NCBI GenBank assembly: GCA_965207855.1 | Contig: OZ242310.1 | Coordinates: forward strand, 3,444,202-3,508,201 | DNA length: 64,000 bases | Direction of reading: 5' to 3' | Origin: Candidatus Poribacteria bacterium | GTDB lineage: Bacteria; Poribacteria; WGA-4E; WGA-3G | Made by a program: the position numbers and the translations under genes | Shown: piece by piece, positions 3,029-64,000 of the stretch | How positions within the stretch are numbered: the first letter of the stretch is position 1 | Layout of the letters: every line of letters starts with the position of its first letter | Notes under the pieces: generated by a model | The model's database searches: none | The model's input: the letters and a program-made list of their open reading frames with translations, nothing else | Told to the model about the DNA's origin: nothing

Positions 3029-3113
3029 ACGTTTAAAGTTTATCCTCCGGCTGCTGGCGAGGTTAGGAAACCTCGCCAAGTATCAAATCCCGCATTTTCA
3101 GAAAGGAAATAAA

Positions 3114-6233: not shown

Positions 6234-6899
6234 ATGAACATTCTCATGTTGCGCCATTCCGCCGGTTTTGAGCACTCGTATCTACCCAATGCTGAGGTTA
6301 CACTGAAGCAGCTGGGTGCAGAAAACGGTTGGAACGTCCTTACAACACACCGTTGCGAACTGATAAACGCTGAAAACCTTGAAAAACAGGACCTCGTCGC
6401 ATTCGCAACCACCGGTAATCTCGCTTTTGATGAGGCGCAGAAAGAGGCACTCCTGAGTTTCGTACGCAACGGAAAAGCCTTCTTGGGCATCCATAACGCA
6501 ACAGATACCTGCTACGATTGGCCCGAATACGGCGAGATGCTCGGCGGCTATTTCGCTGGACACCCGTGGCACGAAGAAGTCAATGTCATCGTTGAGGATT
6601 CCGACCATCCCGCAACCCGCATGCTCGGCAGTAGCTTCAAGGTTGTTGATGAAATTTATACCTTCAAGAACTGGGATCGCAACAAAACCCGCGTCCTCAT
6701 GCGCTTGGACAACGACTCTATCGATCTCTCTCGCGGAAACCGTGAAGACCACGATTACGCGCTCGGATGGTGTCATACTTACGGTCAAGGACGCGTGATG
6801 TACACAGCACTCGGCCATCCTGATGAACTCTGGGACCAAAAATGGTTCCATGAACACATTGTTGGATGTATCAGATGGGCTGCCGGACTCGAAGACTAA
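6234..6899 (+). CDS. ThuA-like (trehalose-utilisation ThuA / class-I glutamine amidotransferase-like fold) protein
   Basis: 221 aa. Residues are conserved across the ThuA-like region. The convergent neighbour is a Gfo/Idh/MocA (ThuB-like) oxidoreductase, which is the classical ThuA/ThuB pairing. Confidence 0.55.
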   Translation: MNILMLRHSAGFEHSYLPNAEVTLKQLGAENGWNVLTTHRCELINAENLEKQDLVAFATTGNLAFDEAQKEALLSFVRNGKAFLGIHNATDTCYDWPEYGEMLGGYFAGHPWHEEVNVIVEDSDHPATRMLGSSFKVVDEIYTFKNWDRNKTRVLMRLDNDSIDLSRGNREDHDYALGWCHTYGQGRVMYTALGHPDELWDQKWFHEHIVGCIRWAAGLED

Positions 6900-9844: not shown

Positions 9845-9918
9845 GGGCGGTTAGCTCAGGTGGCTAGAGCGTTTGCTTGACATGCAAGAGGTCACAGGTT
9901 CAAGTCCTGTACCGCCCA
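9845..9918 (+). tRNA. tRNA-Val (anticodon GAC)
   Basis: The acceptor stem GGGCGGT/ACCGCCC pairs. The anticodon loop is CTTGACATG, as in bacterial tRNA-Val(GAC). The T-loop is GGTTCAAGTCC. Confidence 0.8.
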
Positions 9919-10122
9919 TTTTTCTCTCTTCCAACTTCCCTCATACCAGTACCGCCCCTATACCGATTCTGTCAGATTTCACTAACGCTTGCTCGTAGTC
10001 GGGAAACCATTCATTGCCCGTTAACCAGCGACATATTCAACAACCCAAAAAATCCTAAAATCCTGCAAGTCCTGATTCAGACAGACACCGAAACTCCAGT
10101 TTTCCACGTTTCCATTCTTCCT

Positions 10123-10426: not shown

Positions 10427-10888
10427 ATGAACTCTGAAAAAGGCTATGCAGTCCTTCTTCCTGAAAACTATCCATGGAAAATATCCAACAGCATGAAACT
10501 CCCTAATGCCTATATTACGGTTCCGTTAGGAAGTGAGAATCTGAGGGCACGGTACTGGAAACTTCCACCGTATTCTGCCAATACCTTACACAAACATGTA
10601 AGTTCAGAAGAACTTTATATTGTGCTTGAAGGGACGGGCAAAATTCGTATTGAAGATGAGACTATCAGGGTCCCAAAATACGGGTCGGTCCTCGTTGCCC
10701 CTGAAAGGATACGTCAAATCTTCAATGACACACCTCAAGAGGTCCTGTGGCTTATTGTCGGAGAACCCGAACCGGAATTAGAAGGCAATCAAGAATTTCG
10801 CCCTGAGATGTTTTATCCCCAAAACCCGCAACAACTGCCGAAAGAATTAACTGGACATCAATGGCCGCCCAAGGAGAAAAATGGTTGA
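10427..10888 (+). CDS. Cupin-domain protein
   Basis: 153 aa. A cupin_2-like core is present: HKHVSSEELYIVLEGTG...YGSVLVAPERIRQIFN. Confidence 0.6.
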   Translation: MNSEKGYAVLLPENYPWKISNSMKLPNAYITVPLGSENLRARYWKLPPYSANTLHKHVSSEELYIVLEGTGKIRIEDETIRVPKYGSVLVAPERIRQIFNDTPQEVLWLIVGEPEPELEGNQEFRPEMFYPQNPQQLPKELTGHQWPPKEKNG

Positions 10889-22105: not shown

Positions 22106-22133
22106 TAATCTATATTTGGAGGTTAAATCGTTA

Positions 22134-23747
22134 ATGATGCTTAAAAAGGTGGTTTATGCCGCGCTGATCCTCTTATTCGTAGGTACGATCTCTACCGTTG
22201 TGTTTGGACACAGCGACCTCCCCACGCTTTTGGAGGATGTCAATAAAGATAGTGTGGTGAACATCCAAGACCTGGTGCTCGTCGCTACTGCTTTCGGACA
22301 ACCCAGAGACCGCAATGCGGAATACGACCCTGATGTCAATCGCGACGGAATCGTTAATGTACTCGATCTTGTTCGCGTCAGTAACGGTTTTGGACAGACT
22401 GCATCGGATGAAAATTCAGCGTATCACGATATTCAGGAATATGTCTTTGATAAGAGTTGTGCGAACAGTGTTTGTCATGCTGCGCCTGCCAACGCGGGTA
22501 ATTTAAATCTGACCTATGGTCTCTCTTATGAAGATTTGATCGTCGGTGTGCCACAGAATCCTGCTGCGGCTGCCGCTGGCATGAAACTCGTAGATCCCGG
22601 CAATCCAGAGAACAGTTTCTTGTTGACGAAACTGATGGGACCCACAGCACCGGAACAAGGCGCACGGATGCCCTTTGCGGGCGGCGTGCTCCACGATGGA
22701 AAAATAGAAGCAATTCGTACCTGGATCGAAGCTGGCGCACCACAGACGGGTAAAGTGATCGGGATGGGGGACCTCGCAGTCTTACGAGACCCTGAAGAAA
22801 TCTTTGAACCACCTGCACCACCACCACCCGGTGAAGGCTATCAACTTCATTTGCCGCCCTTCAGAATCGAACCCGGCACTGAACGGGAAGTATTTTATGC
22901 AACGCAAATCAAAGATGAAAATGGAGAGCCAATAGCGGGTGACATCTTCATAAATAGATATGAGATTTTCTATCCCGTGGGCAGCCATCACTTTATCTTA
23001 TATCGGATGACCGATGCAGCAATCTCAGACGGAATCCTTGAGATTGGCTTAGTTCCCGGAATCGGTGTTGATCCAACAGATCCTTTCCGAGAGTTAGACC
23101 CAGCCGACCCGCAGGCACTTGGAGACGGAGGGATTCATCGCTTCTTCGTTGCCGGATCACAAAGCGACGATCTTTCGCTTGCATTTCCAGAGGGCGTCGC
23201 CCTCCGACTTGCCGGTGATACGCTCTTTGACATGAATTCTCACTTCATTAATTTATTAGGGACCGAAACCCTAATTGGTGAGGCTTATATCAATATCTAC
23301 ACACTTCCACCTGAAGAAGTCACGCATGAGGTAATTGAGATTTTCGTTTCCAACACAGAGATTAACGTCCCGCCCGGGCTGACCCGTGTTAGCAAAATGA
23401 ATTGGTATATTGAAGATGAAATGGAACTGCAAGGCATAGATCCAGGGGCAACATTGAACGTCATGCTGCTCACATCTCACATGCATAGACACGGCGAATT
23501 GTTTGAAATCTTTCAACAGTCAACAGGGGGCTTGTTGCACCGGAGCGTCGCTTATGATGACCCACCGATAACCTTTTATACCCCACCGCTGGCACTTGAT
23601 GCAACCGATGGGCTCAGCTTTCAGTGTACGCATAGCAATTATGATCGGGATGTACCTCTTGAATTCGGTTTTACATCCGAAGACGAGATGTGCCTTATGG
23701 TCGGCTATTATTATGTGCCAACGAAAAGTGTTGCGGACAGTAATTAA
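22134..23747 (+). CDS. Secreted multi-domain protein: dockerin-like repeats + PSCyt1-like domain (degenerate C-x4-CH) + C-terminal PHM/DBH-like putative copper-monooxygenase domain
   Basis: Signal peptide. Two D-x-N-x-D-G/S-x-V-N-x-x-D-L repeats. The segment DKSCANSVCH...MPF..WIEAGAP fits the PSCyt1 pattern. Motifs SHHFILY, NSHFINL, SHMHRHGE and SEDEMCLMVGYYYVP sit at PHM-like spacing. GGAGG RBS; the track ORF begins at 22116. Confidence 0.5.
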   Translation: MMLKKVVYAALILLFVGTISTVVFGHSDLPTLLEDVNKDSVVNIQDLVLVATAFGQPRDRNAEYDPDVNRDGIVNVLDLVRVSNGFGQTASDENSAYHDIQEYVFDKSCANSVCHAAPANAGNLNLTYGLSYEDLIVGVPQNPAAAAAGMKLVDPGNPENSFLLTKLMGPTAPEQGARMPFAGGVLHDGKIEAIRTWIEAGAPQTGKVIGMGDLAVLRDPEEIFEPPAPPPPGEGYQLHLPPFRIEPGTEREVFYATQIKDENGEPIAGDIFINRYEIFYPVGSHHFILYRMTDAAISDGILEIGLVPGIGVDPTDPFRELDPADPQALGDGGIHRFFVAGSQSDDLSLAFPEGVALRLAGDTLFDMNSHFINLLGTETLIGEAYINIYTLPPEEVTHEVIEIFVSNTEINVPPGLTRVSKMNWYIEDEMELQGIDPGATLNVMLLTSHMHRHGELFEIFQQSTGGLLHRSVAYDDPPITFYTPPLALDATDGLSFQCTHSNYDRDVPLEFGFTSEDEMCLMVGYYYVPTKSVADSN

Positions 23748-23812
23748 ATAAATCATGCGAAGCGCGGAATCAATTGGATTACCAAACAAATTTGGAGGTT
23801 GAATTGTTAATT

Positions 23813-25429
23813 ATGATAAGAAAAACAGTCTATTTCACACTCATCACCTTGCTGATGGGCAGCTTCTCTTTTTTCGCACTCGGACACAGCGATCTCCCGA
23901 CGCTGTTAGAGGATGTCAATAAAGACGGTGTGGTAAACATCCAAGACTTAGTGCTTGTTGCTGCTTCCTTTGGACAACTCAGGGATCGTAATGCGACGCA
24001 GGACCCTGATGTCAATCGCGACGGGATCGTTAATGTGCTTGACCTCGTTCGGGTCAGTAACAGTTTTGGACAAACCGTGCCAAGTGAAAATTCAGCATAT
24101 CACGATATTCAGGAATATGTCTTTGATAAGAGTTGTGCCAACAGTGTCTGTCATGCTGCGCCTGCGAATGCGGGTAGTTTAAATCTTACCTACGGTCTCT
24201 CTTATGAAGATTTGGTTGGACAGGTTCCTCTGAACCCAGCCGCCGCGGCTGCCGGTATGAAGCTGGTTGATCCGGGCAACCCGGAGAACAGTTTCCTTTT
24301 GGCGAAATTGATGGGACCCGCAGCACCGGAACTGGGCGCGCGGATGCCTTTTGGCGGCGGTATACTCCATACTGGCAAAATAGAAGCTGTCCGCACATGG
24401 ATTGAGGCTGGCGCACCGCAGACCGGCAAAATAGCGGGTATCGGAGACCTTGGGGTCCTACGCGATCCTGACGAAGTGTTTGAACCGCCCGCGCCACCCG
24501 CCCTCGGTGAAGGCTATCAACTCCGTCTGCCACCCTTCAAGATTGAACCCGGTACGGAACGCGAAATCTACTACGCAACCCAAATCACTGATGAAAATGG
24601 AAACCCTATAGCGGGCGACATCTTTATTAATAGAGTTGAAATCTTCTATCCAGCGGGTAGCCATCACTTCATCGTGTATCGGTTCACTGAAGAGGGCTTA
24701 GCAAACGGGGTCCCAGAGAGAGGAATTACACCCGGAATCGCAGTTGATCCAGCGACGGATAGATTCCGTGAACTGGACCCAGACGATCCGCAAGTGCTTG
24801 GCAATTTTGGTGTTGATAGACTTTTTGTTGTCGGCACGCAGACGGATGATACGCTTTTTGAATTTCCTGAAGGTGTGGGATTACGGATGCCCGGAGACAC
24901 GGTTTACGACCTCAATTCCCACTACATCAATTTGCTTGGGGACGAAACATTGATTGGCGAAACCTACGTCAATATCTACACGATTCCCGAAGAAGAAGTT
25001 CAGTACGAGGCGGTTGAAATTTTCGTTTCTAACAGATCGATTAACGTACCACCCAAAACAACGCGCGTTTCCAAAATGACGTGGTACGTTGAAGATGAAC
25101 TCGAACGCCGAGGACACAACCCGGCAGCGGAATTGAGCGTCTTCTTACTCACATCTCACATGCACAGACACGGTGAGTTGTTTGAAATCAATCAGAGATC
25201 AACCGGGGATTTATTGCACCGAAGCATCGCTTACGACAATGCTCCGATTACTCTGTTTGAACCGATTCTCCGCTTAGGTCCAGACGATGGACTTAGATTC
25301 GAGTGTACCCACAACAACTACGACACGAATGAACCGCTCATATTCGGACTTACATCTGAAGATGAGATGTGCATTATCTTCGGTTATTATTATATCCCGA
25401 CTGAAAGTGCCGGAGAGATCATTAAATAG
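23813..25429 (+). CDS. Tandem paralogue of 22134..23747 (same domain architecture)
   Basis: About 75% identical across all the same motifs (AGSHHFIVYR, NSHYINLLG, TSHMHRHGELFEI, SEDEMCIIFGYYYIPT). The RBS context is also conserved. Confidence 0.5.
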   Translation: MIRKTVYFTLITLLMGSFSFFALGHSDLPTLLEDVNKDGVVNIQDLVLVAASFGQLRDRNATQDPDVNRDGIVNVLDLVRVSNSFGQTVPSENSAYHDIQEYVFDKSCANSVCHAAPANAGSLNLTYGLSYEDLVGQVPLNPAAAAAGMKLVDPGNPENSFLLAKLMGPAAPELGARMPFGGGILHTGKIEAVRTWIEAGAPQTGKIAGIGDLGVLRDPDEVFEPPAPPALGEGYQLRLPPFKIEPGTEREIYYATQITDENGNPIAGDIFINRVEIFYPAGSHHFIVYRFTEEGLANGVPERGITPGIAVDPATDRFRELDPDDPQVLGNFGVDRLFVVGTQTDDTLFEFPEGVGLRMPGDTVYDLNSHYINLLGDETLIGETYVNIYTIPEEEVQYEAVEIFVSNRSINVPPKTTRVSKMTWYVEDELERRGHNPAAELSVFLLTSHMHRHGELFEINQRSTGDLLHRSIAYDNAPITLFEPILRLGPDDGLRFECTHNNYDTNEPLIFGLTSEDEMCIIFGYYYIPTESAGEIIK

Positions 25430-27509: not shown

Positions 27510-29438
27510 ATGCAAACTCGTGAAACTTCCATCTCATCGGCACGCGTTACAGCGAGGTCACTGATCTTAGGGATTTTATTCATCCCTGTTAATGTTTATT
27601 GGATGACGCTTGTTGAAGTGAAGTATTACTCCCTTGACGGTTCATGCCTCCCGCTTTTTATCCAACCGGTCTTCATTATGTTCGTCTGTGTTATCGCGAA
27701 CACACTCTTGAAACGTTTCGCGCCGCGGCAGATGCTCCAACAGGGAGAGTTGCTCACTGTCTACATCATGGTGGCGATCTCGTGTACGTTTGCCGGACAC
27801 GACACGATGCAGAATATGTTCGGGAGTATTGGGCATGCGTTCCAATTCGCAACGGACGAGAATGAGTGGCAGACGCTCTTTTTTCGGTATCTACCCGCTT
27901 GGCTTACCATCTCGGATACCCAAAGCCTCCAAGGGTTTTACGAGGGGGAAGCCACCTTCTACACGAAGCATAACTTCTCAATTTGGCTAAAACCCTTGGC
28001 GTTCTGGGGACTCTTTTTCCTGATTATGATGTTCATGATGCTTTGCATCAACACAATCGTCCGAAAGCGATGGGCAGAGCAAGAAAAACTCGCGTATCCG
28101 ATCATACAACTTCCGCTACGACTCTCCGAAGATGGCGGTATCAGCCTCCTCAAGAATCGGATGATGTGGATAGGCTTCAGCATCGCGTTCGCTATCGGGG
28201 TCATTAACGGGGTCAACTATCTTTTTCCGCAGTTTCCAGAGATCCCTTATATCAAGCGGACGGCTGTTTTCCAAAATATTTTCACTGACCGTCCATGGAA
28301 CGTCATTCGTGGGACCCGGATCTCTGTTTATCCTTTCGCAGTGGGTTTGGCGTTTTTCTTACCGTTGGACCTCTCGTTCTCGTGTTGGTTCTTCTTTGTT
28401 GTACGCTTAGCGGAATTCGTCATTGGCGCAGCACTCGGTACCCGCTATTTTCCTGCCCTCAACGAGCAGGCGTATGGTGCTTGGATCGCCCTTTTCCTGC
28501 TTGCCGTTTGGGTCACACGGCGACATCTGGTAGAAGTGATGAAAAAAGTATTTGGGTTTGAATCGCGTCTTGATGATTCCAACGAACCGATGCCGTATCG
28601 TGCCGCCTTTTTGGGAATTCTTGGATCACTTGTTGCCCTTGGGATCTTTTCCTCTATCGCAGGAATGGCGTTGTGGGTCGCCGGTCTTTTCTTTGGTGTC
28701 TATTTTCTGCTATCGTTTGCAATTACTCGTGTTCGGGCGGAACTCGGCACACCGCATGAAATTTACTACGTCAATCCGCACGACATGCTCGCGACAGTCG
28801 GTGGAACGCGGCAGTTTGACACGAGCAGTCTCACCATTATGTCGCTTTTCTATTGGTTCAATCGGGGCTACCGGAATCACCCAATGCCGAATCAGATTGA
28901 GGCGTTCAAACTCGCCGAATCAACGGGGATGGGCAACAGACGTTTGTGGGTGGCGATGTTGATAGCAATTATCGTCGGGATTTTGGTGACTTTTTGGGCG
29001 AATCTGGACATCACCTTCCGGAACGGTGCTGATGCGAAAGCCGGTGGATTCAAAGACTGGGTTGGCAGAGAATCGTTCAGTCGGCTGCAGCGATGGCTGC
29101 ATAACCCAACGGAACCGAACATGGTTGGTATGGGCTTTATGGGTATCGGCGCGCTCTTGACGTTTGTGATGATGTACATGCGGATGCATTTCTTGTGGTG
29201 GCCCTTCCATCCAGCGGGTTACGCGCTTGCCATCAGTTTTGCGATGGATTATTTCTGGTTCGCTTTCTTCGTGGCGTGGTTTTTGAAGTTAATGATTCTT
29301 CGGCACGGTGGCTTGCGGCTCCATCGTCAGGTCGCACCGCTCTTTTTGGGGTTAATATTAGGCGACTACGTCATCGGCAGCACCTGGGCAATCATCGGAC
29401 CGGCATCCGGCTTACGAACCTATAAAATCTTTATTTGA
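27510..29438 (+). CDS. Large polytopic membrane protein, unrecognised family (paralogue 1 of 3 in the window)
   Basis: 642 aa with 12 or more hydrophobic segments. Shares motifs HAFQFAT(D/P)ENEW, YPI(I/V)QLPL, PLDLSFSCWFF, R(V/I)RAE(L/I)G(T/P)P and LGLILGDY with 57331..59256 and 60059..61972. Confidence 0.6.
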   Translation: MQTRETSISSARVTARSLILGILFIPVNVYWMTLVEVKYYSLDGSCLPLFIQPVFIMFVCVIANTLLKRFAPRQMLQQGELLTVYIMVAISCTFAGHDTMQNMFGSIGHAFQFATDENEWQTLFFRYLPAWLTISDTQSLQGFYEGEATFYTKHNFSIWLKPLAFWGLFFLIMMFMMLCINTIVRKRWAEQEKLAYPIIQLPLRLSEDGGISLLKNRMMWIGFSIAFAIGVINGVNYLFPQFPEIPYIKRTAVFQNIFTDRPWNVIRGTRISVYPFAVGLAFFLPLDLSFSCWFFFVVRLAEFVIGAALGTRYFPALNEQAYGAWIALFLLAVWVTRRHLVEVMKKVFGFESRLDDSNEPMPYRAAFLGILGSLVALGIFSSIAGMALWVAGLFFGVYFLLSFAITRVRAELGTPHEIYYVNPHDMLATVGGTRQFDTSSLTIMSLFYWFNRGYRNHPMPNQIEAFKLAESTGMGNRRLWVAMLIAIIVGILVTFWANLDITFRNGADAKAGGFKDWVGRESFSRLQRWLHNPTEPNMVGMGFMGIGALLTFVMMYMRMHFLWWPFHPAGYALAISFAMDYFWFAFFVAWFLKLMILRHGGLRLHRQVAPLFLGLILGDYVIGSTWAIIGPASGLRTYKIFI

Positions 29439-55506: not shown

Positions 55507-57315
55507 GTGTTTGGCATGGGAGGCGACCTATACGAATATAGCGATGAGGAGCAGGACCTCGGGAAAGTCTATGATCGCGTGCTGATGAGACGGCTCTTGG
55601 CATATCTCAAGCCCTATAAACTCCAATTGTTTATCATCGGGTTTCTCATGGTCGGGAATACGCTTGCACGTTTGGCTGGACCCTACCTGCTGCAGCGCGG
55701 TATTGACGAGCACATTACCCCGGGCGTATTAGACGGATTAAGCACAATCGTGATTTTCTTCGTAGTGGCACTGATTGGCGAGTTCGTATTTAGTTACTTT
55801 GAGGAATACCGTATGCAGATGATTGGACAACGCGTGATGCACGATCTGCGGCAAACCCTCTTTTCACATTTGCAACGTTTAGACGTGCAGTTTTTCGATA
55901 AGAATCCTGTCGGTAGACTGATGACCCGTGTTATGGGCGATGTTCAGGTCCTCAACGAACTCTTTGCTTCTGGCGTGATTACTGTTTTCGCGAATCTGCT
56001 TCAGATTTTGGGTATCATGGTGGCAATGCTCCTGTATAACTGGAAACTTGCCCTTGTGACATTCACTGTCATACCGATTATCTTCGGCGCAACGCTTGTT
56101 TACCAAATCTATTCGCGGCGTGCTTTTCGGGAACAACGGAAGCAGCTCGCACGGATCAATGCCTTTTTACAGGAAAACATCGTCGGTATGACGACGATGA
56201 AGCTTTTCGCACAAGAACGCCGGAGCCATCTCCGTTTTAACGAGCGCAACCGGAGATACCTCGCTGCCAACCTTCGGAGTATCTTCTATTTTTCTATTTT
56301 TCACCCGCTGATTGAAGTGACGGCTTCGCTTGCGATAGCCGTGATTATCTGGTACGGTGGTGGACAGGTTGTTCAGAACGCCCTGAGTTTCGGTGTACTG
56401 TTAGCATTTATCCGTTATGCTGAACGCTTCTTCTGGCCCATACGAGAACTCAGCGAAAAATATACCATCTTCCAAAACGCCATGGCTTCCTCCGAACGCA
56501 TCTTCCAATTGCTTGATACGCAACCGACGATCGCTTCTGCCGTCCCTAAAAGTGGTACCAAGACGCTGAAAGGTGAGATTGAATTTCGGAATGTCTGGTT
56601 CGCCTATAACGATGATGACTACGTGCTGCAAGATGTCTCATTCAAAGTGAAACCGGGTGAAAAGGTCGCGCTTGTTGGGCATACCGGTGCCGGGAAAACC
56701 TCTATCATCAATCTGCTTTGCCGATTCTACGAGATTAACAAAGGTCAAATCCTGATTGACGGTGTAGACATCCGAGAGATGAACGTGGAGGAACTCCGGG
56801 AAGCCATCAGCATTGTGCAACAGAACATCTTCCTCTTTTCCGATTCAATTGAACGGAACATCAGTTTAGGCAATCCATCAATCTCATCAGAGCAGGTCGA
56901 ACGCGCCGCAAAAGATGTGCATTTAGATCGGTTTATTCAGAAGATGCCACAAGTTTACGGCACTGAAATTAAAGAGGACGGCGGTGGGTTATCCGTTGGA
57001 CAGAAACAGTTGGTCGCATTTGCCCGTGCTTTGGCTTCTGATCCAAGTATCCTTATCCTTGACGAGGCGACATCAAGCGTTGACACCGAGACCGAAATCT
57101 TGATTGAGGACGCACTTAAACGTTTGATGGCGAATCGAACTTCTGTTGTTATCGCACACCGGCTCTCAACAATCCAGAATGCCGATAGGATTATCGTGAT
57201 GCACCGCGGGGAAATTCGGGAGACTGGCACACACCAGGAGTTATTACAAAAGGGAGGCATCTATCATCGCCTGTATCAATTGCAATACAAGGGACAGGAA
57301 AGAAATGGGGGGTAA
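55507..57315 (+). CDS. ABC exporter, fused permease/ATPase (MdlB-like), second of the pair
   Basis: Walker A GHTGAGKTS, signature LSVGQKQL, Walker B ILILDEATS. AAAGGAGG RBS before the GTG. Confidence 0.8.
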   Translation: MFGMGGDLYEYSDEEQDLGKVYDRVLMRRLLAYLKPYKLQLFIIGFLMVGNTLARLAGPYLLQRGIDEHITPGVLDGLSTIVIFFVVALIGEFVFSYFEEYRMQMIGQRVMHDLRQTLFSHLQRLDVQFFDKNPVGRLMTRVMGDVQVLNELFASGVITVFANLLQILGIMVAMLLYNWKLALVTFTVIPIIFGATLVYQIYSRRAFREQRKQLARINAFLQENIVGMTTMKLFAQERRSHLRFNERNRRYLAANLRSIFYFSIFHPLIEVTASLAIAVIIWYGGGQVVQNALSFGVLLAFIRYAERFFWPIRELSEKYTIFQNAMASSERIFQLLDTQPTIASAVPKSGTKTLKGEIEFRNVWFAYNDDDYVLQDVSFKVKPGEKVALVGHTGAGKTSIINLLCRFYEINKGQILIDGVDIREMNVEELREAISIVQQNIFLFSDSIERNISLGNPSISSEQVERAAKDVHLDRFIQKMPQVYGTEIKEDGGGLSVGQKQLVAFARALASDPSILILDEATSSVDTETEILIEDALKRLMANRTSVVIAHRLSTIQNADRIIVMHRGEIRETGTHQELLQKGGIYHRLYQLQYKGQERNGG

Positions 57316-57330
57316 GGTGCGTTATCGGAA

Positions 57331-59256
57331 TCAATGCCAGACAATATACGTCGGCATTTCCAATACCAACCCAATCAGGCTCCACACACATCCAAGCGTA
57401 TAATCCCCCAAGATGAGTCCTAAAAAGAACGGTACCGCCTGCCGATAGAGCTTCACGCCCCCAATCTTCAGTACAATTGCCTTTGCCAACCAACTTAGGA
57501 AGATTGGAAACCACAGACCGCTCATCCCCGTCCCACTCACCAGCACATAACCACCGGGATGCAGGGGCCACCAGAGAAATCGAATCTTCATAATCATCAG
57601 GAATATCGTAAATAGGAAACTGCTGCCGATAACACTCAGTTCCGGCACACTCGTCTCCCGTGGACTAACAAGCCACGTTTGTAGGCGATTAAACGTTTCC
57701 CATCCCATGTAAACAATCCAACCACGTGCTTTGCTCCCTGCCCCCATATCGTAAAGGACGTGTAGATACGCCCAAAACGTTATCAGTATCCCGAACACAA
57801 TCGCCAAGATCATCCCAATAAGGAGTTGACGATACCCGATACGACTCCGTTCTGCCAACCTGAACGCCTCCAACTCACTCGGTGTCGGATGTGCGCGGAA
57901 ACACCGAACAAATGGATAGAGAAACGTGAGTCCTGTTAGATTCGCTGCACCGAGACGACGCGTGCCTAATGCAAGCACCATCGTCCGTCCAGGATCGACA
58001 AAGATGAGCTGATGCAACGGCGGTCCGATCTCTGCGCGGATACGGGTAATACCGATAACTAACGGGAAGTAGAACACGAAGAACAGCCCTATCGCCCAAA
58101 ACGTCATCCCCATCTGATGGCAAAAGAAAAAAAGAAACAGCATCCCAACGGTAAAAAGACCCGCCGCAGTCCGATAGCGCATCGGTTCACCGGAGTCGTC
58201 GGGTGCAGCTTCACCACGGCGTTGTGCGATGCCGAAAACTTTCCGCAGAATGCGCCCGTAGTGCCGCCGACCCATCCACAGCGGAATGCAGCCAAACGCA
58301 ATCCATGCCCCTGTCTGCTGCTCAAGGTGATAGATGTTTCGTGCCCCAAACGCGTCTGTTACAATCAGTTGGATACGACTGAAAAGCCAGAAAAACCAAC
58401 ACGAAAACGAGAGATCCAGCGGTGTGAAGAACATCAAACCGATACTAAACGGATAGAAGGATATCCGAATCGGTCCCATCGCGCTCCACGGTTTTGAACT
58501 GAATTGCCCGATTGTTTTGCCTTTGATGGGGAGTGCAGGTATATCAGGAAACAGGTAGTTCAATCCATTCAACAATTCCGCGCTCCCTGCGAGTGCGAAG
58601 CCTAGCCACATCCACGGCGAAGTAAAGAAGCGTTTCGGGTTGCTTGTCAGAGCCAAGGGGAGTTGAACGATTGGATAGTTTAGGCGTTCGTTTTCGGTCC
58701 ACTGTTTTCGGAGAAAAACGGTTACCGCCAGCAGCGTCAACCAGAGCGCGATGACAAAACTCGACCACGCCAGCACGGGGGGTATCCACGCATCTAAGTG
58801 AGAAGGGGTATAGAGAGTAGAATCACCGTTATAGAACCCATCCAAAACGCGCGGGCTTTTAATAGCGATCCACGTCGGGATGTGGTGTCCAAAAAGCGGA
58901 ATCCATTCGTTTTCTGGCGTTGCAAATTGGAAGGCGTGTGCGAGGACAGGGATAAGATACCCCATCATCGTGTGTCCGCTAATCGTCGTTAGCATCACCA
59001 CCATGACATAGATGGTCTGCAAATCCGCCTGCGACATCGCCAGACGCGGCACGAACCGTTGGAACAGTAGATTGATAAGTACAAAGACGAGGAGGGTGAA
59101 AACGGCGTTGAAGAATAGAGACGCGATTGTGAGCTGCGTAGAGTGCCACACCTCTGTTCCCATCAGACACCAGTAACTATTGAAAGCAACAAGCACCAAT
59201 CCAATCAGCAGAATATGCGGTTTGACGAGGTTCTGCTTACTATTACTGTTAGTCAT
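57331..59256 (-). CDS. Large polytopic membrane protein, unrecognised family (paralogue 2)
   Basis: 641 aa. About 40-45% identical to 27510..29438, and about 85-90% identical to 60059..61972. Confidence 0.6.
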   Translation of the reverse strand: MTNSNSKQNLVKPHILLIGLVLVAFNSYWCLMGTEVWHSTQLTIASLFFNAVFTLLVFVLINLLFQRFVPRLAMSQADLQTIYVMVVMLTTISGHTMMGYLIPVLAHAFQFATPENEWIPLFGHHIPTWIAIKSPRVLDGFYNGDSTLYTPSHLDAWIPPVLAWSSFVIALWLTLLAVTVFLRKQWTENERLNYPIVQLPLALTSNPKRFFTSPWMWLGFALAGSAELLNGLNYLFPDIPALPIKGKTIGQFSSKPWSAMGPIRISFYPFSIGLMFFTPLDLSFSCWFFWLFSRIQLIVTDAFGARNIYHLEQQTGAWIAFGCIPLWMGRRHYGRILRKVFGIAQRRGEAAPDDSGEPMRYRTAAGLFTVGMLFLFFFCHQMGMTFWAIGLFFVFYFPLVIGITRIRAEIGPPLHQLIFVDPGRTMVLALGTRRLGAANLTGLTFLYPFVRCFRAHPTPSELEAFRLAERSRIGYRQLLIGMILAIVFGILITFWAYLHVLYDMGAGSKARGWIVYMGWETFNRLQTWLVSPRETSVPELSVIGSSFLFTIFLMIMKIRFLWWPLHPGGYVLVSGTGMSGLWFPIFLSWLAKAIVLKIGGVKLYRQAVPFFLGLILGDYTLGCVWSLIGLVLEMPTYIVWH

Positions 59257-59983
59257 TCCCGCACCTACTGATGTGCTGTAACGCTTTCTTCAACACCGCT
59301 TCGTTGCTGTATTTTTTTAGAGTATCTTGTGCGGTAGAATCGTTGAATTCCCGAATCTCTTCGCATAACAACGGTAGTGCCCGCACAACGTTATCTACGA
59401 TTGTGATGCTCGCCTGTTGTGCCGTCCGTGACATTGGGTTTAAATCGACGGTTACAACTGCTTTACCCATCTTTCGGAGTGCTTCGCATCGGTCCCCGTC
59501 CTCAAGTGGCACAAAAACGACATCGGCTTTAAAGATTCCCTTTGGATGCACGAACTTACGATTGGAATCGATATAGGAGAGTTGTGCCTCGGTTGTCGGC
59601 ATCAGGATGTCGCGGGCACCGTGCTTGAGAAGATACTCCCGGATTTTCTGTTCCCGTCCGGTTTCCGTGTGGAAAATGTTCACCTCTAACGGTGCGTTTA
59701 GAGCCTGTCCCAATTCGATGAGTCCCTCCGGTGCCAACGCTGCCACATTCCCGTTGACGGAGATGACGGGGTGTTCTGCCAAACGCAGCATTGCTGCTGC
59801 GGCGTGGATCGCCTCAATCGCGAACGGTTGTGTCGCTTCTCCGATGAGGTAATCAAAAGCCTCTCCGCGACCGTGTGCGATAAGTCCGTGGATTGAGGTA
59901 ATCCCTTGTTCTACGCCTGCAACGATGGTATCTCTGAGCGTGAGTGAAAGGTATCGGGGATGTGTTTTCGGAACGTCGCTCAA
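59249..59983 (-). CDS. Hypothetical 244-aa protein, weakly reminiscent of the archaeal-type DUF137 / 4-phosphopantoate--beta-alanine ligase (PPS) family
   Basis: TTG start. An 8-nt overlap with the downstream membrane-protein gene implies translational coupling. The family call is from memory and weak. Confidence 0.3.
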   Translation of the reverse strand: MSDVPKTHPRYLSLTLRDTIVAGVEQGITSIHGLIAHGRGEAFDYLIGEATQPFAIEAIHAAAAMLRLAEHPVISVNGNVAALAPEGLIELGQALNAPLEVNIFHTETGREQKIREYLLKHGARDILMPTTEAQLSYIDSNRKFVHPKGIFKADVVFVPLEDGDRCEALRKMGKAVVTVDLNPMSRTAQQASITIVDNVVRALPLLCEEIREFNDSTAQDTLKKYSNEAVLKKALQHISRCGND

Positions 59984-60058
59984 TTGGGTAGCACCTCAGC
60001 AGAAGTTTCCGTCTATTATACCGCCTTTTGCATAAGTTTGCAAGAGGGCTTGAACACC

Positions 60059-61972
60059 TCAATGCCACACAATATACGTCGGTATCTCCAACACCAACCC
60101 AATCAGGCTCCAGACACACCCGAGTGTATAATCCCCTAAGATGAGTCCTAAAAAGAAGGGTATCGCTTGTCTGTAGAGTTTCACACCGCCAATCTTTAGC
60201 ACAATTGCCTTCGCTAACCACCCCAGAAAGATTGTAAACCATAATCTTCCCATTCCAGAGCCACTGATTAACACATAGCCCGCGGGATGTAGGGGCCACC
60301 AGAGAAACCGAATCTTCATAATCATCAGGAAAATCGTGAACATGAAACTACTGCCGATAACGCCGAGTTCCGGCACGCCTGTCTCTCGTGGACTCACAAG
60401 CCACGTCTGTAAGCGGTTAAACGTTTCCCATCCCATATAAACAATCCAACCGCGCGCTTTGCTTGCTGCCCCCATATCGTAGAGGACGTGTAGGTATGCC
60501 CAAAACGTTATCAATATCCCAAACACAATCGCCAAGATCATACCGATAAGGAGTTGGCGATACCCGATGCTCGTCCTTTCCGCCAGACGGAACGCCTCCA
60601 GTTCACTCGGTGTCGGGTGGGCGCGGAAACAGCGAACAAATGGATAGAGGAACGTCAGTCCCATCAGATTGCCTGCCCCTAAACGGCGTGTACCTAACGC
60701 CGTGACCATCGTCCGTCCGGGATCGACGAGGATGAGTTGATGAAGGGGCGGCCCAATTTCGGCGCGGATACGCGTGATACCGATAATCATCGGAAAGTAG
60801 AAAAGAAAAAAGAGTCCAATCGCCCAGAAGGTCATCCCCATCTGAAAACAGAAGAGGAAAAGGAACAGTAATCCCACGGTGAACAGGCCTGCAGCAGTGC
60901 GATAGCGCATCGGTTCACCAGAATCGTCGGGAGGCGGTTCGTCACGGCGTTGTGAGATGCCGAAAACTTTACGGATAATACGTCCATAGTGCCGTCGTCC
61001 CATCCACAACGGGATGCATCCAAACGCAAGCCACGCCCCCGTCTGCTGTTCAAACCTATAGATATCGCGTGCGCCGAGCATATCTGTCACAACCATCTGC
61101 AGACGGGTCAGTAACCAGAAAAACCAGCAGGAAAACGAGAGATCCAGCGGCGTGAAGAACATCAAACCGATGCTGAATGGATAGAGGGAGATCCGAATCG
61201 GTCCCATCGCACTCCACGGCTTTGAACTGAATTGCCCAAGCACTCTGTTTCTAATCGGTAGGGAAGGGATTTCTGGATACAGGAAACTCAGTCCGTTTAG
61301 GAGTTCCGCACTCCCCGCAATTGCAAATCCGAGCCACATCCACGGCGAGGTAAAGAAGCGTTTCGGATTGCTCGTCAGTGCCAAGGGGAGTTGGACGATT
61401 GGATAGTTCAGGCGTTCGTTTTCCGTCCACTGTTTACGGAGAAAGATCGTCACTGCCAGCAATGTCAGCCAGAGGGCGATGACAAAACTCGACCATGCCA
61501 GCACGGGCGATATCCATGCGTTTAGCGTGGCAGAATTATAAAGTGTAGCATCCCCGTTGTAGAACCCGTCTAAGATGCGCGGACTTTTGACTGCAATCCA
61601 ACTCGGGATACTGTTTCCAAAGAGCGATAGCCACTCATTTTCGGGGCTTGCGAACTGAAATGTATGTGTGAGGACGGGGATGAGGTACCCCATCATGGTG
61701 TGTCCACTAATTGTGGATACCATCACCACCATCACATAGATGGTTTGCAGATCGGCTTGCGACATCGCCAGACGCGGCACGAATCTTTGGAACAGGAGGT
61801 TAACAAGCACGAAAACAAGGAGGGTAAAGACCGCATTAAAGAACAGTGAGGCGATGGTTAGCTGCGTAGAGTGCCACACCTCTGTTCCCATCAGGCACCA
61901 GTAGCTATTAAAAGCGACGAGAGCCAACCCAATCAATAGAATGTGAGGTTTGACACGGTTCTGTTCCGCCAA
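60059..61972 (-). CDS. Large polytopic membrane protein, unrecognised family (paralogue 3, recent tandem duplicate); TTG start re-called, track ORF extends to 62095
   Basis: It aligns from LAEQNRVKPHILLIGL with paralogue 2 (MTNSNSKQNLVKPHILLIGL). GAGGTG lies 7 nt upstream of the TTG. Confidence 0.55.
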   Translation of the reverse strand: MAEQNRVKPHILLIGLALVAFNSYWCLMGTEVWHSTQLTIASLFFNAVFTLLVFVLVNLLFQRFVPRLAMSQADLQTIYVMVVMVSTISGHTMMGYLIPVLTHTFQFASPENEWLSLFGNSIPSWIAVKSPRILDGFYNGDATLYNSATLNAWISPVLAWSSFVIALWLTLLAVTIFLRKQWTENERLNYPIVQLPLALTSNPKRFFTSPWMWLGFAIAGSAELLNGLSFLYPEIPSLPIRNRVLGQFSSKPWSAMGPIRISLYPFSIGLMFFTPLDLSFSCWFFWLLTRLQMVVTDMLGARDIYRFEQQTGAWLAFGCIPLWMGRRHYGRIIRKVFGISQRRDEPPPDDSGEPMRYRTAAGLFTVGLLFLFLFCFQMGMTFWAIGLFFLFYFPMIIGITRIRAEIGPPLHQLILVDPGRTMVTALGTRRLGAGNLMGLTFLYPFVRCFRAHPTPSELEAFRLAERTSIGYRQLLIGMILAIVFGILITFWAYLHVLYDMGAASKARGWIVYMGWETFNRLQTWLVSPRETGVPELGVIGSSFMFTIFLMIMKIRFLWWPLHPAGYVLISGSGMGRLWFTIFLGWLAKAIVLKIGGVKLYRQAIPFFLGLILGDYTLGCVWSLIGLVLEIPTYIVWH

Positions 61973-62148
61973 TTCGTAGCACCTCAACACAAATTTGCGT
62001 CTATTATACAGTGTTTTGTGTCTGTTTTCAAGAGGGATATCGGACAATCTTATTTTTTTGAAACCTCTTACGAATTGCTGTATAATTTGCTTCAATTTGA
62101 CATCATAGAAAATGAGTCGCGTCTTATATCTATCTCAGATTTAGGAGA

Positions 62149-62533
62149 ATGCATGAAGCATCGAAACGGAAAAGGAACAAACGAACATCTCGAAAGCGAT
62201 TCAGCGAGCTTAACTTGCAGTACCTCGGTGAAAAATCGATCCCGATCTTAAAGAAAAAACTCGCCCAAGACCCGAATTCTGCGGAACTACATAACCACCT
62301 CGCAACTGCCTATCTTCTTTCTACAGGAAACGTATGAAAAACCTGATAAGTCAGCACTACATGCCAGCGTTGCGCTACTTTACATGAAGCAAGGCGACAT
62401 TGATGCCGCGGAACCTTATCTCATAGAGGCACTCATGCTGGATCCAGAGTGTAGCGCGGCACAAAAGGTTTTGGAGGTGTTCAACGAAGAACAAGCAAAG
62501 CAAAGCACTGCCTATGAAACCGAGGCACTCTGA
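62149..62533 (+). pseudogene. Small TPR-like protein split by an apparent 1-nt frameshift near 62330
   Basis: Frame 1 gives ...AELHNHLATAYLLSTGNV*. Frame 2 continues as a TPR helix pair: ...SALHASVALLYMKQGDIDAAEPYLIEALMLDPE. Confidence 0.35.
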
Positions 62534-62789
62534 AGCACAAGTCTCTTCCATTTGGGGGGTGAGTTCCACTAGCGATTTGGCAAGCTGTATGAGGTGAGAT
62601 TGTACTTCGTGTCCGCTGGAGCAAAGACCGACTCCAAACAGTGTGTTTCTTCACGCCAGCGGCGTGATATGTCTATAGAAATTGGAAACGGCTATAGCTG
62701 CACTCCAGCGGAGTGCTATGTCAAAAATTGTCCAAAATTTAGTATGCTCAGTGAAAATGGTAAATTGAGGTCTTGTGGGTGAATATTCT

Positions 62790-64000
62790 ATGATACGATT
62801 TTCTGAAATATGGTACTGGGTTTTAGTAGTGGTTGTTGTCATACTTGCAGCCAGTATAACGATTTTGTTTGGAGAAACAAATGATGTTCCGGTGCTTGAG
62901 GAAACCAGTTCGCCTGATACCCTTAAAGAGGCGGATCCGGTAACCAAGGTTGAACTTCAACCTGAGGATTCTGCCTCGCGTGGTACTACAGTAAATGTTG
63001 ATCCTTCCGACAAGGTTGAACTTCAGCAGCTCTTCAATGACTTGAGGAAGGAATATCTTGATACTCGAGCTAAATTGATGGATTGGTGGTTGGAGTTCAT
63101 TGGGATAATCCTCACCTTTTTTGCTATTCTTATTGCTATTGCTGGTTACATTGGTTTCAGAGAGTTTAGGAGGCTTAGAGATGAAGCACGCCAACATGTT
63201 ACTGAGATACGAAAAGATAAGAAAGAGTCTGATGAACTCATGCAGAATATGAGGCAAAAGGGAAATGCGGAAGTTTTCGACACGCTCTCCGAAAGTGAAG
63301 AATTTAAGAAAAGTTTGTCTGATCTGCTACAAAATTCCGAATTACCTGTTATAGAAAAGGCTATAGCCGATGCATCGGCATTGCAGCAAGATGGAGCAAT
63401 TGAGGATGCTATCGAGAAATGGCGTTCTATTGCTAACATAGTGGAAGGAATTGATAATGCCTCGCGTATCGAGCGTGGTTTTCTGTCGGTTATCTTTATT
63501 CACAGGAAGGAAAACCAGAGGAAACAATTTCCGCCTGCAACGAGGCAATTCGTCTGAAACCAGATAGTGCTGAGGTATACAATAATCGTGGTGCTGCAAA
63601 CGGTGAACTTGGTCAATATGATGATGCTATTACTGATCTTAATGAGGCAATCGCGTTGGATCCAGATGATGCCGAAGCATACTACAACCGAGGAACTGTA
63701 CGCTTCATGAGGGACGAAGATGAATTTGCTTGTGCTGACTTTGATGAGGCGATTCGTCTAAAGCCGTCTCATACGAAGGCGTTTATCAATCGTGGGTCTT
63801 CGAGGGCTAGGCTTGGTCAATACGATGCTGCTATTGCTGATCTTGATAAGGCAATAGCGTTAGATCCAAATGATGCCCAGGCATACTATAACCGAGGATG
63901 TATGAAATTCCTACTCGGCGCAGATACAGAAGCTTCTGTCAACTTTGATGAGTCGATCCACTTTGAAAATGCAAAGTCGGATTTCCAAAATGCATTAGAC
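62790..64000 (+). CDS. Membrane-anchored TPR-repeat protein (continues past the window end) with an apparent frameshift near 63465
   Basis: N-terminal TM helix IWYWVLVVVVVILAASITILF. After about 63460 the TPR repeats (AWFSVGYLYSQEGKPEE..AIRLKPDSAEVYNNRG..) continue in a different frame to the window edge. Confidence 0.45.

Follow-up and report, generated by a model that had tools for sequence, protein, structure and literature searches.

An old tandem duplication of a phosphopantothenate synthetase and membrane-protein operon in Poribacteria, with probable deletion of the synthetase gene from the upstream copy

In sponge-associated Poribacteria, an archaeal-type phosphopantothenate synthetase (PPS) and a pantoate kinase substitute for PanC/PanK (Thomes & Lescure 2020, PMC7883664). 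The pantoate kinase was reported in 31 of 38 Entoporibacteria genomes, and the poribacterial PPS is thought to be archaeal in origin, obtained via horizontal transfer (PMC7883664). The occurrence of the enzyme in this group is already published; gene context forms no part of that account, which does not use the words operon, neighbour, synteny, or transporter. Here, we describe the locus of such a gene in a stretch of 64,000 nt from Candidatus Poribacteria bacterium (GenBank assembly GCA_965207855.1, contig OZ242310.1, positions 3,444,202 to 3,508,201 of the forward strand), referred to below as the window and numbered from its first nucleotide. The PPS gene lies between two copies of a membrane-protein gene, an arrangement that very probably goes back to an old tandem duplication of a PPS-transporter operon followed by deletion of PPS from the upstream copy.

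The open reading frame (ORF) list of the window showed three minus-strand genes arranged head to tail: the upstream membrane-protein gene p3 (60059..61972; 637 aa from a TTG at 61972), PPS (59249..59983; 735 nt, 244 aa, TTG start), and the downstream membrane-protein gene p2 (57331..59256; 641 aa, ATG start at 59256). PPS and p2 overlap by 8 nt, between the p2 ATG and the PPS stop codon (ATGACTAA). Both p2 and p3 carry the domains DUF6785 and DUF6784 and are collinear over their full length (57331..59235 and 60059..61963), with 81.3% DNA identity over 1907 columns and 87.8% protein identity (559/637); the nucleotide identity of 85–90% given in a first-pass annotation was an overestimate. The similarity continues upstream, where the minus-strand segments 59977..60048 (copy 2) and 61967..62036 (copy 3) were 79.2% identical over 72 nt (blastn), with a local alignment score of 37 as compared to 7.7 ± 1.3 (maximum 14) in 2000 shuffles (z = 22). 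PPS, a PF02006 (DUF137-like) gene, was present in copy 2 only. The annotation had described the membrane-protein locus as tandemly duplicated together with a promoter-like segment of ~75 nt, this gene being found in one copy only, and the collinear alignment and the 72-nt repeat bear this out. A third paralogue with the same domain pair, p1 (27510..29438, plus strand, 642 aa), was ~40% identical to p2 and p3 and lies outside their duplication. It neighbors a fused homocysteine S-methyltransferase/MTHFR gene and an AIR-synthase-related gene, a context unrelated to PPS.

The middle gene gave a full-length match to PF02006 (227.5 bits, E = 1.1e-67) and exceeded the cut-offs of the NCBIfam equivalog NF041123 (302.5 bits; cut-off 300) and of NF010324 (336.3 bits; cut-off 227). 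Its closest relatives belonged to Candidatus Poribacteria, and an exact-sequence look-up of the window PPS returned no record. By these profile matches, it is an archaeal-type PPS (4-phosphopantoate--beta-alanine ligase), an enzyme of the coenzyme A (CoA) pathway, and with respect to the Entoporibacteria enzymes of PMC7883664 the 244-aa protein reached up to 93% identity with annotated Poribacteria PPS. The gene is co-oriented with and overlaps a putative transporter gene and does not lie beside a kinase gene; no GHMP-kinase homologue was found within the 64-kb window. In more distant Poribacteria (loci L030–L040; other genomes are labelled L001–L082), PPS directly follows a GHMP-kinase gene, with stop and start codons abutting, and this gene is probably the pantoate kinase. 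Loci of this type had no DUF6785 gene beside PPS, except L036, where a distant homologue (~40% identical) lies ~1.2 kb upstream of PPS.

A scan with the PPS protein, using one genome per species, yielded 80 loci. The order p3-PPS-p2 was found in 14 other species-level Poribacteria (L001–L006, L008–L013, L017, and L049), among them single-contig closed chromosomes (OX638352, OZ241845, OX639992, and OY764016). The upstream gene of the relatives was 92–97% identical to window p3 (16 genomes) and the downstream gene 93–98% identical to window p2; in L014 and L043, only p3 and PPS were present, the former having no p2 and the latter ending at a contig end. In a neighbor-joining tree, the upstream copies, the downstream copies, and the single-copy genes of other Poribacteria formed clades with bootstrap values of 75, 72, and 95%, respectively. 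No clustering by genome, as expected from concerted evolution or p2-p3 gene conversion, was seen in this tree; L017 alone had a somewhat lower synonymous divergence (dS) between p2 and p3. In the window, dS between the two copies was 0.86 (YN00) to 1.15 (NG86) and the non-synonymous divergence (dN) 0.07, with a third-codon-position identity of 0.595. The dN/dS ratio of ~0.07 indicated strong purifying selection on both copies. Since each copy has distinct orthologues in the relatives and the two fall into separate clades, the duplication predates the radiation of this Poribacteria clade.

The state before the duplication can be read from 13 more distant Poribacteria, in which PPS is followed directly by one overlapping DUF6785 gene. 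A motif search recovered a promoter of TTGAAA or TTGAAT, 17 nt, and TATAAT upstream of PPS in 10 of these 13 single-copy loci. Judged from these sequences, the ancestral state is a single operon of promoter, PPS, and membrane-protein gene. Third-position identity was 0.69 among upstream copies, 0.63 among downstream copies, and 0.58 between upstream and downstream copies, and 0.52–0.53 (nearer group) or 0.43–0.44 (farther group) between either copy and the single-copy genes, a ranking that places the duplication after the split of the single-copy lineages. At 17 positions, the upstream and downstream clades showed near-fixed amino-acid differences, and the state of the single-copy genes was that of the upstream copy in 14 cases and that of the downstream copy in 3. 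The PPS-linked copy is thus the one that diverged, and the 14:3 asymmetry, together with synteny, argues for the single-copy genes as an outgroup to both copies.

Traces of the deletion were preserved upstream of p3 in the relatives. In L002, positions 6713–6783 match the PPS promoter region (9916–9985) and the adjoining positions 6784–6815 match 10712–10743, which comprise the last PPS codons and the p2 start. L003 shows an equivalent junction, 7875|7876, which maps to 9985|10715, and this two-block pattern recurred in L001, L006, L008, L009, L011, L014, and L049. What remains between the promoter copy and p3 is a scar of the last ~25 nt of the PPS ORF (sequences CAGCACATC..GCAGG..GGGAATG), and by alignment the two-block pattern is the footprint of a deletion of 726–729 nt that removed nearly the whole PPS ORF. 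The scar was long in L005, L009, and L011, of medium length in L006 and L013, and short in most others, a variation that looks like later erosion. Because the single-copy outgroups have PPS and relatives keep the scar, PPS was lost from the p3 copy and not gained by the other. The alternative that the first-pass annotation had left between gain and loss is hence settled as loss by comparison with relatives, the outgroups with PPS, the 72-nt promoter repeat, and the scars of the PPS 3' end agreeing on a tandem duplication followed by loss. In L025, PPS occurred without an adjacent membrane-protein gene, and taken together with L014 this indicates that the locus loses transporter copies too.

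A different junction was found in the window, L004, and L010, where the ribosome-binding site (RBS) and TTG of PPS are fused to approximately codon 8 of the membrane-protein gene (window allele GAGGTGCTACGAATTG|GCGGAACAGAAC vs. PPS GAGGTGCTACCCAATTG|AGCGAC). The window itself retains only the RBS and start codon of the lost gene, and L017 additionally keeps PPS codons 2–3 (GCGACG). Since the long scar has no TTG, the fused-TTG alleles are not derivable from it by simple deletion, and from the two kinds of junction PPS was probably deleted at least twice from the full duplicate. Window p3 is a mosaic that most resembles L004 in the promoter and 5' end and L002 in the body (informative sites 40:18 vs. 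78:142; Fisher p = 5.7e-6, uncorrected for the 258 breakpoints), and this points to allele exchange between lineages.

Several observations weigh against this reconstruction. On the gene tree, genomes with a given junction type do not group together, which requires independent deletions or allele exchange, and mosaicism was seen in one genome only (window p3). The intermediate is a reconstructed one, as none of the genomes found had two intact PPS copies; searches for a second PPS copy or remnant upstream of p3 (tblastn, word size 2, E ≤ 10; 16 relatives and the window) returned only noise. Rooting with p1 (40% identity) was unstable: the upstream and downstream copies together excluded the single-copy clade in only 9% of bootstraps, so that the dating of the duplication against the single-copy lineages depends on synonymous-site similarity and on synteny. 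This leaves some room for a duplication that predates the single-copy lineages, which would then have secondarily lost the upstream copy. Single-copy proteins are 88–89% identical to p2 and p3, a value similar to the 87.8% between the two copies; losses occur, as in L014 without p2; and L015 and L026 are single-copy and yet group near the downstream clade. However, third-position identity between the copies (0.58) exceeds that to the single-copy genes (0.43–0.53), dS between p2 and p3 is 0.86–1.15 as compared to 0.96–1.98 to L016, and each clade has derived states of its own relative to the single-copy genes at the 17 near-fixed differences (14 and 3). The single-copy loci showed no upstream scar and no upstream promoter copy. 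On balance, we consider such an older duplication unlikely.

A gain of PPS, in which the promoter and membrane-protein gene were duplicated first and PPS was inserted later in copy 2, would be compatible with the window, which on its own allows either direction, and an origin by horizontal transfer from Archaea has been assumed for the enzyme (PMC7883664). It is nevertheless very hard to reconcile with the 13 single-copy loci that already combine PPS with an overlapping membrane-protein gene, 10 of them behind a matching promoter, with the last ~25 nt of the PPS ORF between promoter copy and p3 in relatives, and with the position of PPS beside a GHMP-kinase gene in more distant Poribacteria, by which PPS predates the duplication. 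A very recent duplication, as the first-pass annotation had proposed from the collinearity of p2 and p3 and the repeated promoter, or an assembly expansion or collapse, is scarcely credible given 19% DNA divergence, a dS of about 1 with the low third-position identity, a tree without sign of concerted evolution, and distinct orthologues of both copies in separate clades and 14 independent assemblies, several of them single-contig chromosomes, which exclude an artefact.

We therefore return to an old duplication of the operon with later loss of PPS, for which the following course is proposed. An ancestor within this branch of sponge-associated Poribacteria would have carried a sigma-70-type promoter, PPS, and an overlapping gene for an OPT-fold transporter, the latter two probably translationally coupled. 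A unit of ~2.7 kb, reaching from promoter to stop codon of the transporter gene, would have been tandemly duplicated in the ancestor of at least 15 species-level lineages, and the redundant PPS of the upstream unit (~0.73 kb) subsequently deleted, so that promoter, 5' untranslated region (5'UTR), and RBS came to stand immediately before the transporter copy and would drive it. Of the deletion alleles, at least two exist, a scar allele with the last ~25 nt of PPS and the transporter's own ATG, and the window allele with the PPS TTG fused to approximately codon 8; both transporter copies are held by purifying selection. The duplicated unit possibly included a divergent tetratricopeptide repeat (TPR) gene upstream. 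L011 and L013 each have a TPR gene on either side of p3, one upstream of it and the other between p3 and PPS, and in the outgroup L029 a TPR gene lies upstream of PPS; homologues of this family are also located between p3 and PPS in L001, L002, and L006. With low sequence identities and a gene order upstream of p3 that varies, their part in the unit is suggestive only. As a further upstream extent of the unit, a 31-nt match of 97% in L001 was rejected, as it belongs to a dispersed hairpin repeat similar to repetitive extragenic palindromes (REP-like) that occurs three times in the locus.

This course corresponds to the known pattern of tandem operon duplication with deletion of a redundant gene: the unit from promoter to stop codon was duplicated, one redundant member was lost, and purifying selection kept the other gene in both copies. 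The deletion end-points lie near two similar RBS motifs (AGGTGC), as in duplicate resolution with promoter retention. It differs in that the clade has two deletion alleles side by side, and one of them reuses the start codon of the lost gene for the survivor. The locus is a clear but evolutionarily ordinary case of duplicate resolution, with nothing mechanistically unusual.

The duplicated upstream segments share, on the minus strand, a layout of CCCTC, TTG(C/A)AA, a 17-nt spacer, TATAAT, AGACG, ~14 nt more, GAGGTGCTAC, (CC)(C/G)AA, and TTG. In sequence, this is a near-consensus sigma-70-type promoter, presumably active, with a short leader, an RBS, and a TTG start. In the consensus scan, the predicted promoter of PPS and p2 (TTGCAA, 17 nt, TATAAT; 60015..60043, minus strand) had 10 of 12 matches and that of p3 (TTGAAA, 17 nt, TATAAT; 62003..62031, minus strand) 11 of 12. 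Among 48 examined upstream regions, a TTG −35 box with the 17-nt spacer and TATAAT was seen in 45, and the p3 promoter was kept upstream of p3 in all 16 relatives (16/16). Two transcription units would follow, one reading from 62031..62003 into p3 and the other from 60043..60015 into PPS and the overlapping p2. The −35 box of the latter starts 15 nt past the p3 stop codon, and read-through from p3 is likely because these 15 nt contain no predicted terminator. A terminator scan of the locus gave sites no more frequently than in shuffles, two sites near gene ends falling inside coding 3' ends, and an Rfam scan of 57000..62600 at E ≤ 1 returned no match. A near-consensus promoter was also seen on the plus strand (62058..62086; TTGAAA, 17 nt, TATAAT; 11/12), back to back with that of p3; the short plus-strand ORFs after it (62149..62533) are TPR-like by eye and may be frame-disrupted.

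The RBS of PPS (GAGGTG, 59992..59997, minus strand) lies 8 nt before its TTG, and copy 3 has GAGGTG at 61985..61980 before the TTG at 61972..61970. The predicted RBS of p2 (AGGTGC, 59261..59266, minus strand) is located inside the PPS 3' end. The PPS upstream regions of the relatives mostly have GAGGTG, with GAGGTA, AAGGTG, and TTGGTG as variants in some, and their aligned PPS-3'/p2-start region has AGGTGC or AGGAGC. AGGTGC, the motif pointed out in the first-pass annotation for copy 3, precedes the p2 ATG at 59266..59261 and forms part of GAGGTGC at 59997..59991 (PPS) and 61985..61979 (p3), so that two such motifs flank the PPS ORF. TTG, GTG, and ATG interchange at the PPS start position across relatives. 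The TTG that opens PPS in copy 2 has its match in copy 3 at 61972, 7 nt after GAGGTG, where it reads in frame into the membrane protein (M-A-E-Q-N-R-V-K-P-H...), and from the RBS and the homology to the PPS start this TTG is likely the start of p3. The maximal ORF would extend p3 to 60059..62095. The TTG at 62095 sits upstream of the promoter and the extra stretch towards it is not conserved, relatives being ~40–50% identical to the window there, which likewise argues for a start at 61972. TTG starts had been assigned to both the PPS and the membrane-protein genes; this holds for PPS and p3, whereas p2 starts with ATG (59256).

The closest described systems for the membrane proteins are transporters of the OPT/YSL type (TC 2.A.67; barley HvYS1, PDB 7WSR/7WST), and the comparison rests on fold. 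Pfam scores for DUF6785 and DUF6784 (cut-offs 25 and 26.4 bits) were 543.7 and 115.7 bits for p2, 538.6 and 117 bits for p3, and 578.3 and 123.5 bits for p1; a literature search found no papers on either domain. A confident AlphaFold2 model built from 40 homologues (predicted local distance difference test 87.7, predicted template modelling score 0.88) shared the OPT/YSL fold over most of the membrane protein, with ~11–12% identity in the structural alignment. No match at E ≤ 10 was obtained for the Pfam OPT model among 40 family members, nor for PDB chains against the family profile. Since there is no sequence-level link, we call the protein OPT-fold and do not place it in the OPT family; the model suggests that it is probably a secondary transporter.

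Elsewhere, DUF6785/DUF6784 homologues are often multi-copy per contig and often lie beside genes for fucosidases, glycoside hydrolases, YdjC, or sulfatases. In this they differ from OPT/YSL transporters, the neighbors being carbohydrate-type genes and not peptide or metal-chelate genes; one context was less clear, with merely a distant cellulase-domain gene nearby. In the metagenomic contigs L081, L082, and that bearing P0216, two to three such genes per contig were accompanied by genes for alpha-L-fucosidases, GH42-like proteins, glycoamylase, YdjC, and sulfatase, neighborhoods that hint at a role in glycan use. A more specific and rather doubtful possibility is that the protein imports a CoA precursor from the sponge host, such as beta-alanine or a beta-alanyl compound, pantoate, or a pantetheine-like molecule, and that p2 then changed specificity. 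The first part is suggested because the overlapping PPS-transporter operon is stable in ~27 species-level Poribacteria genomes, the second because p2 carries 14 of the 17 near-fixed differences.

Further features were observed around the locus. Upstream of p3, a divergent gene for a membrane-anchored TPR protein (62775..64000, plus strand) shows a frame change near 63480–63557, a change that points to a frameshift, a pseudogene, or a sequencing error. The REP-like repeat (GGCGAGG-loop-CCTCGCC, often followed by AGCGGCG) was located at 2034, 6611, and 9792 in L001, at 10365 in L013, and at 3056..3077 in the window, which has one copy as compared to 0.01 expected by chance. In L013, the repeat is part of the PPS ORF, in frame, and this ORF is 771 nt long instead of ~730 nt; in L017, the PPS leader (5'UTR) carries an inserted hairpin of similar type. 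Restriction-modification cassettes, with an N6/N4 DNA methylase and an MjaI-like endonuclease and also a second gene pair, lie between p2 and a convergent ABC-transporter pair in L001, L003, L006–L012, L014, and L049; in the window (57316..57330), there is no cassette and p2 directly adjoins the ABC gene. Another apparent tandem paralogue pair is formed by the adjacent plus-strand genes 22116..23747 and 23774..25429 (543 and 551 aa), which share an identical domain pair of Dockerin_1 and a copper type II monooxygenase C-terminal domain.

The main value of these results is corrective: p2 and p3 are an old, selectively kept paralogue pair, neither newly duplicated nor misassembled, and the change is settled as a loss of PPS. 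For annotation, DUF6785/DUF6784 proteins can be labelled as OPT/YSL-fold transporters, and the start of p3 should be set at the TTG at 61972 instead of that of the longest ORF. In one clade of Entoporibacteria, the archaeal-type PPS appears to be transcriptionally tied to a transporter gene and not to pantoate kinase, which offers a weak lead on the substrate. If the transporter does import a CoA precursor, the duplication would have given the symbiont a second importer that is uncoupled from the enzyme.

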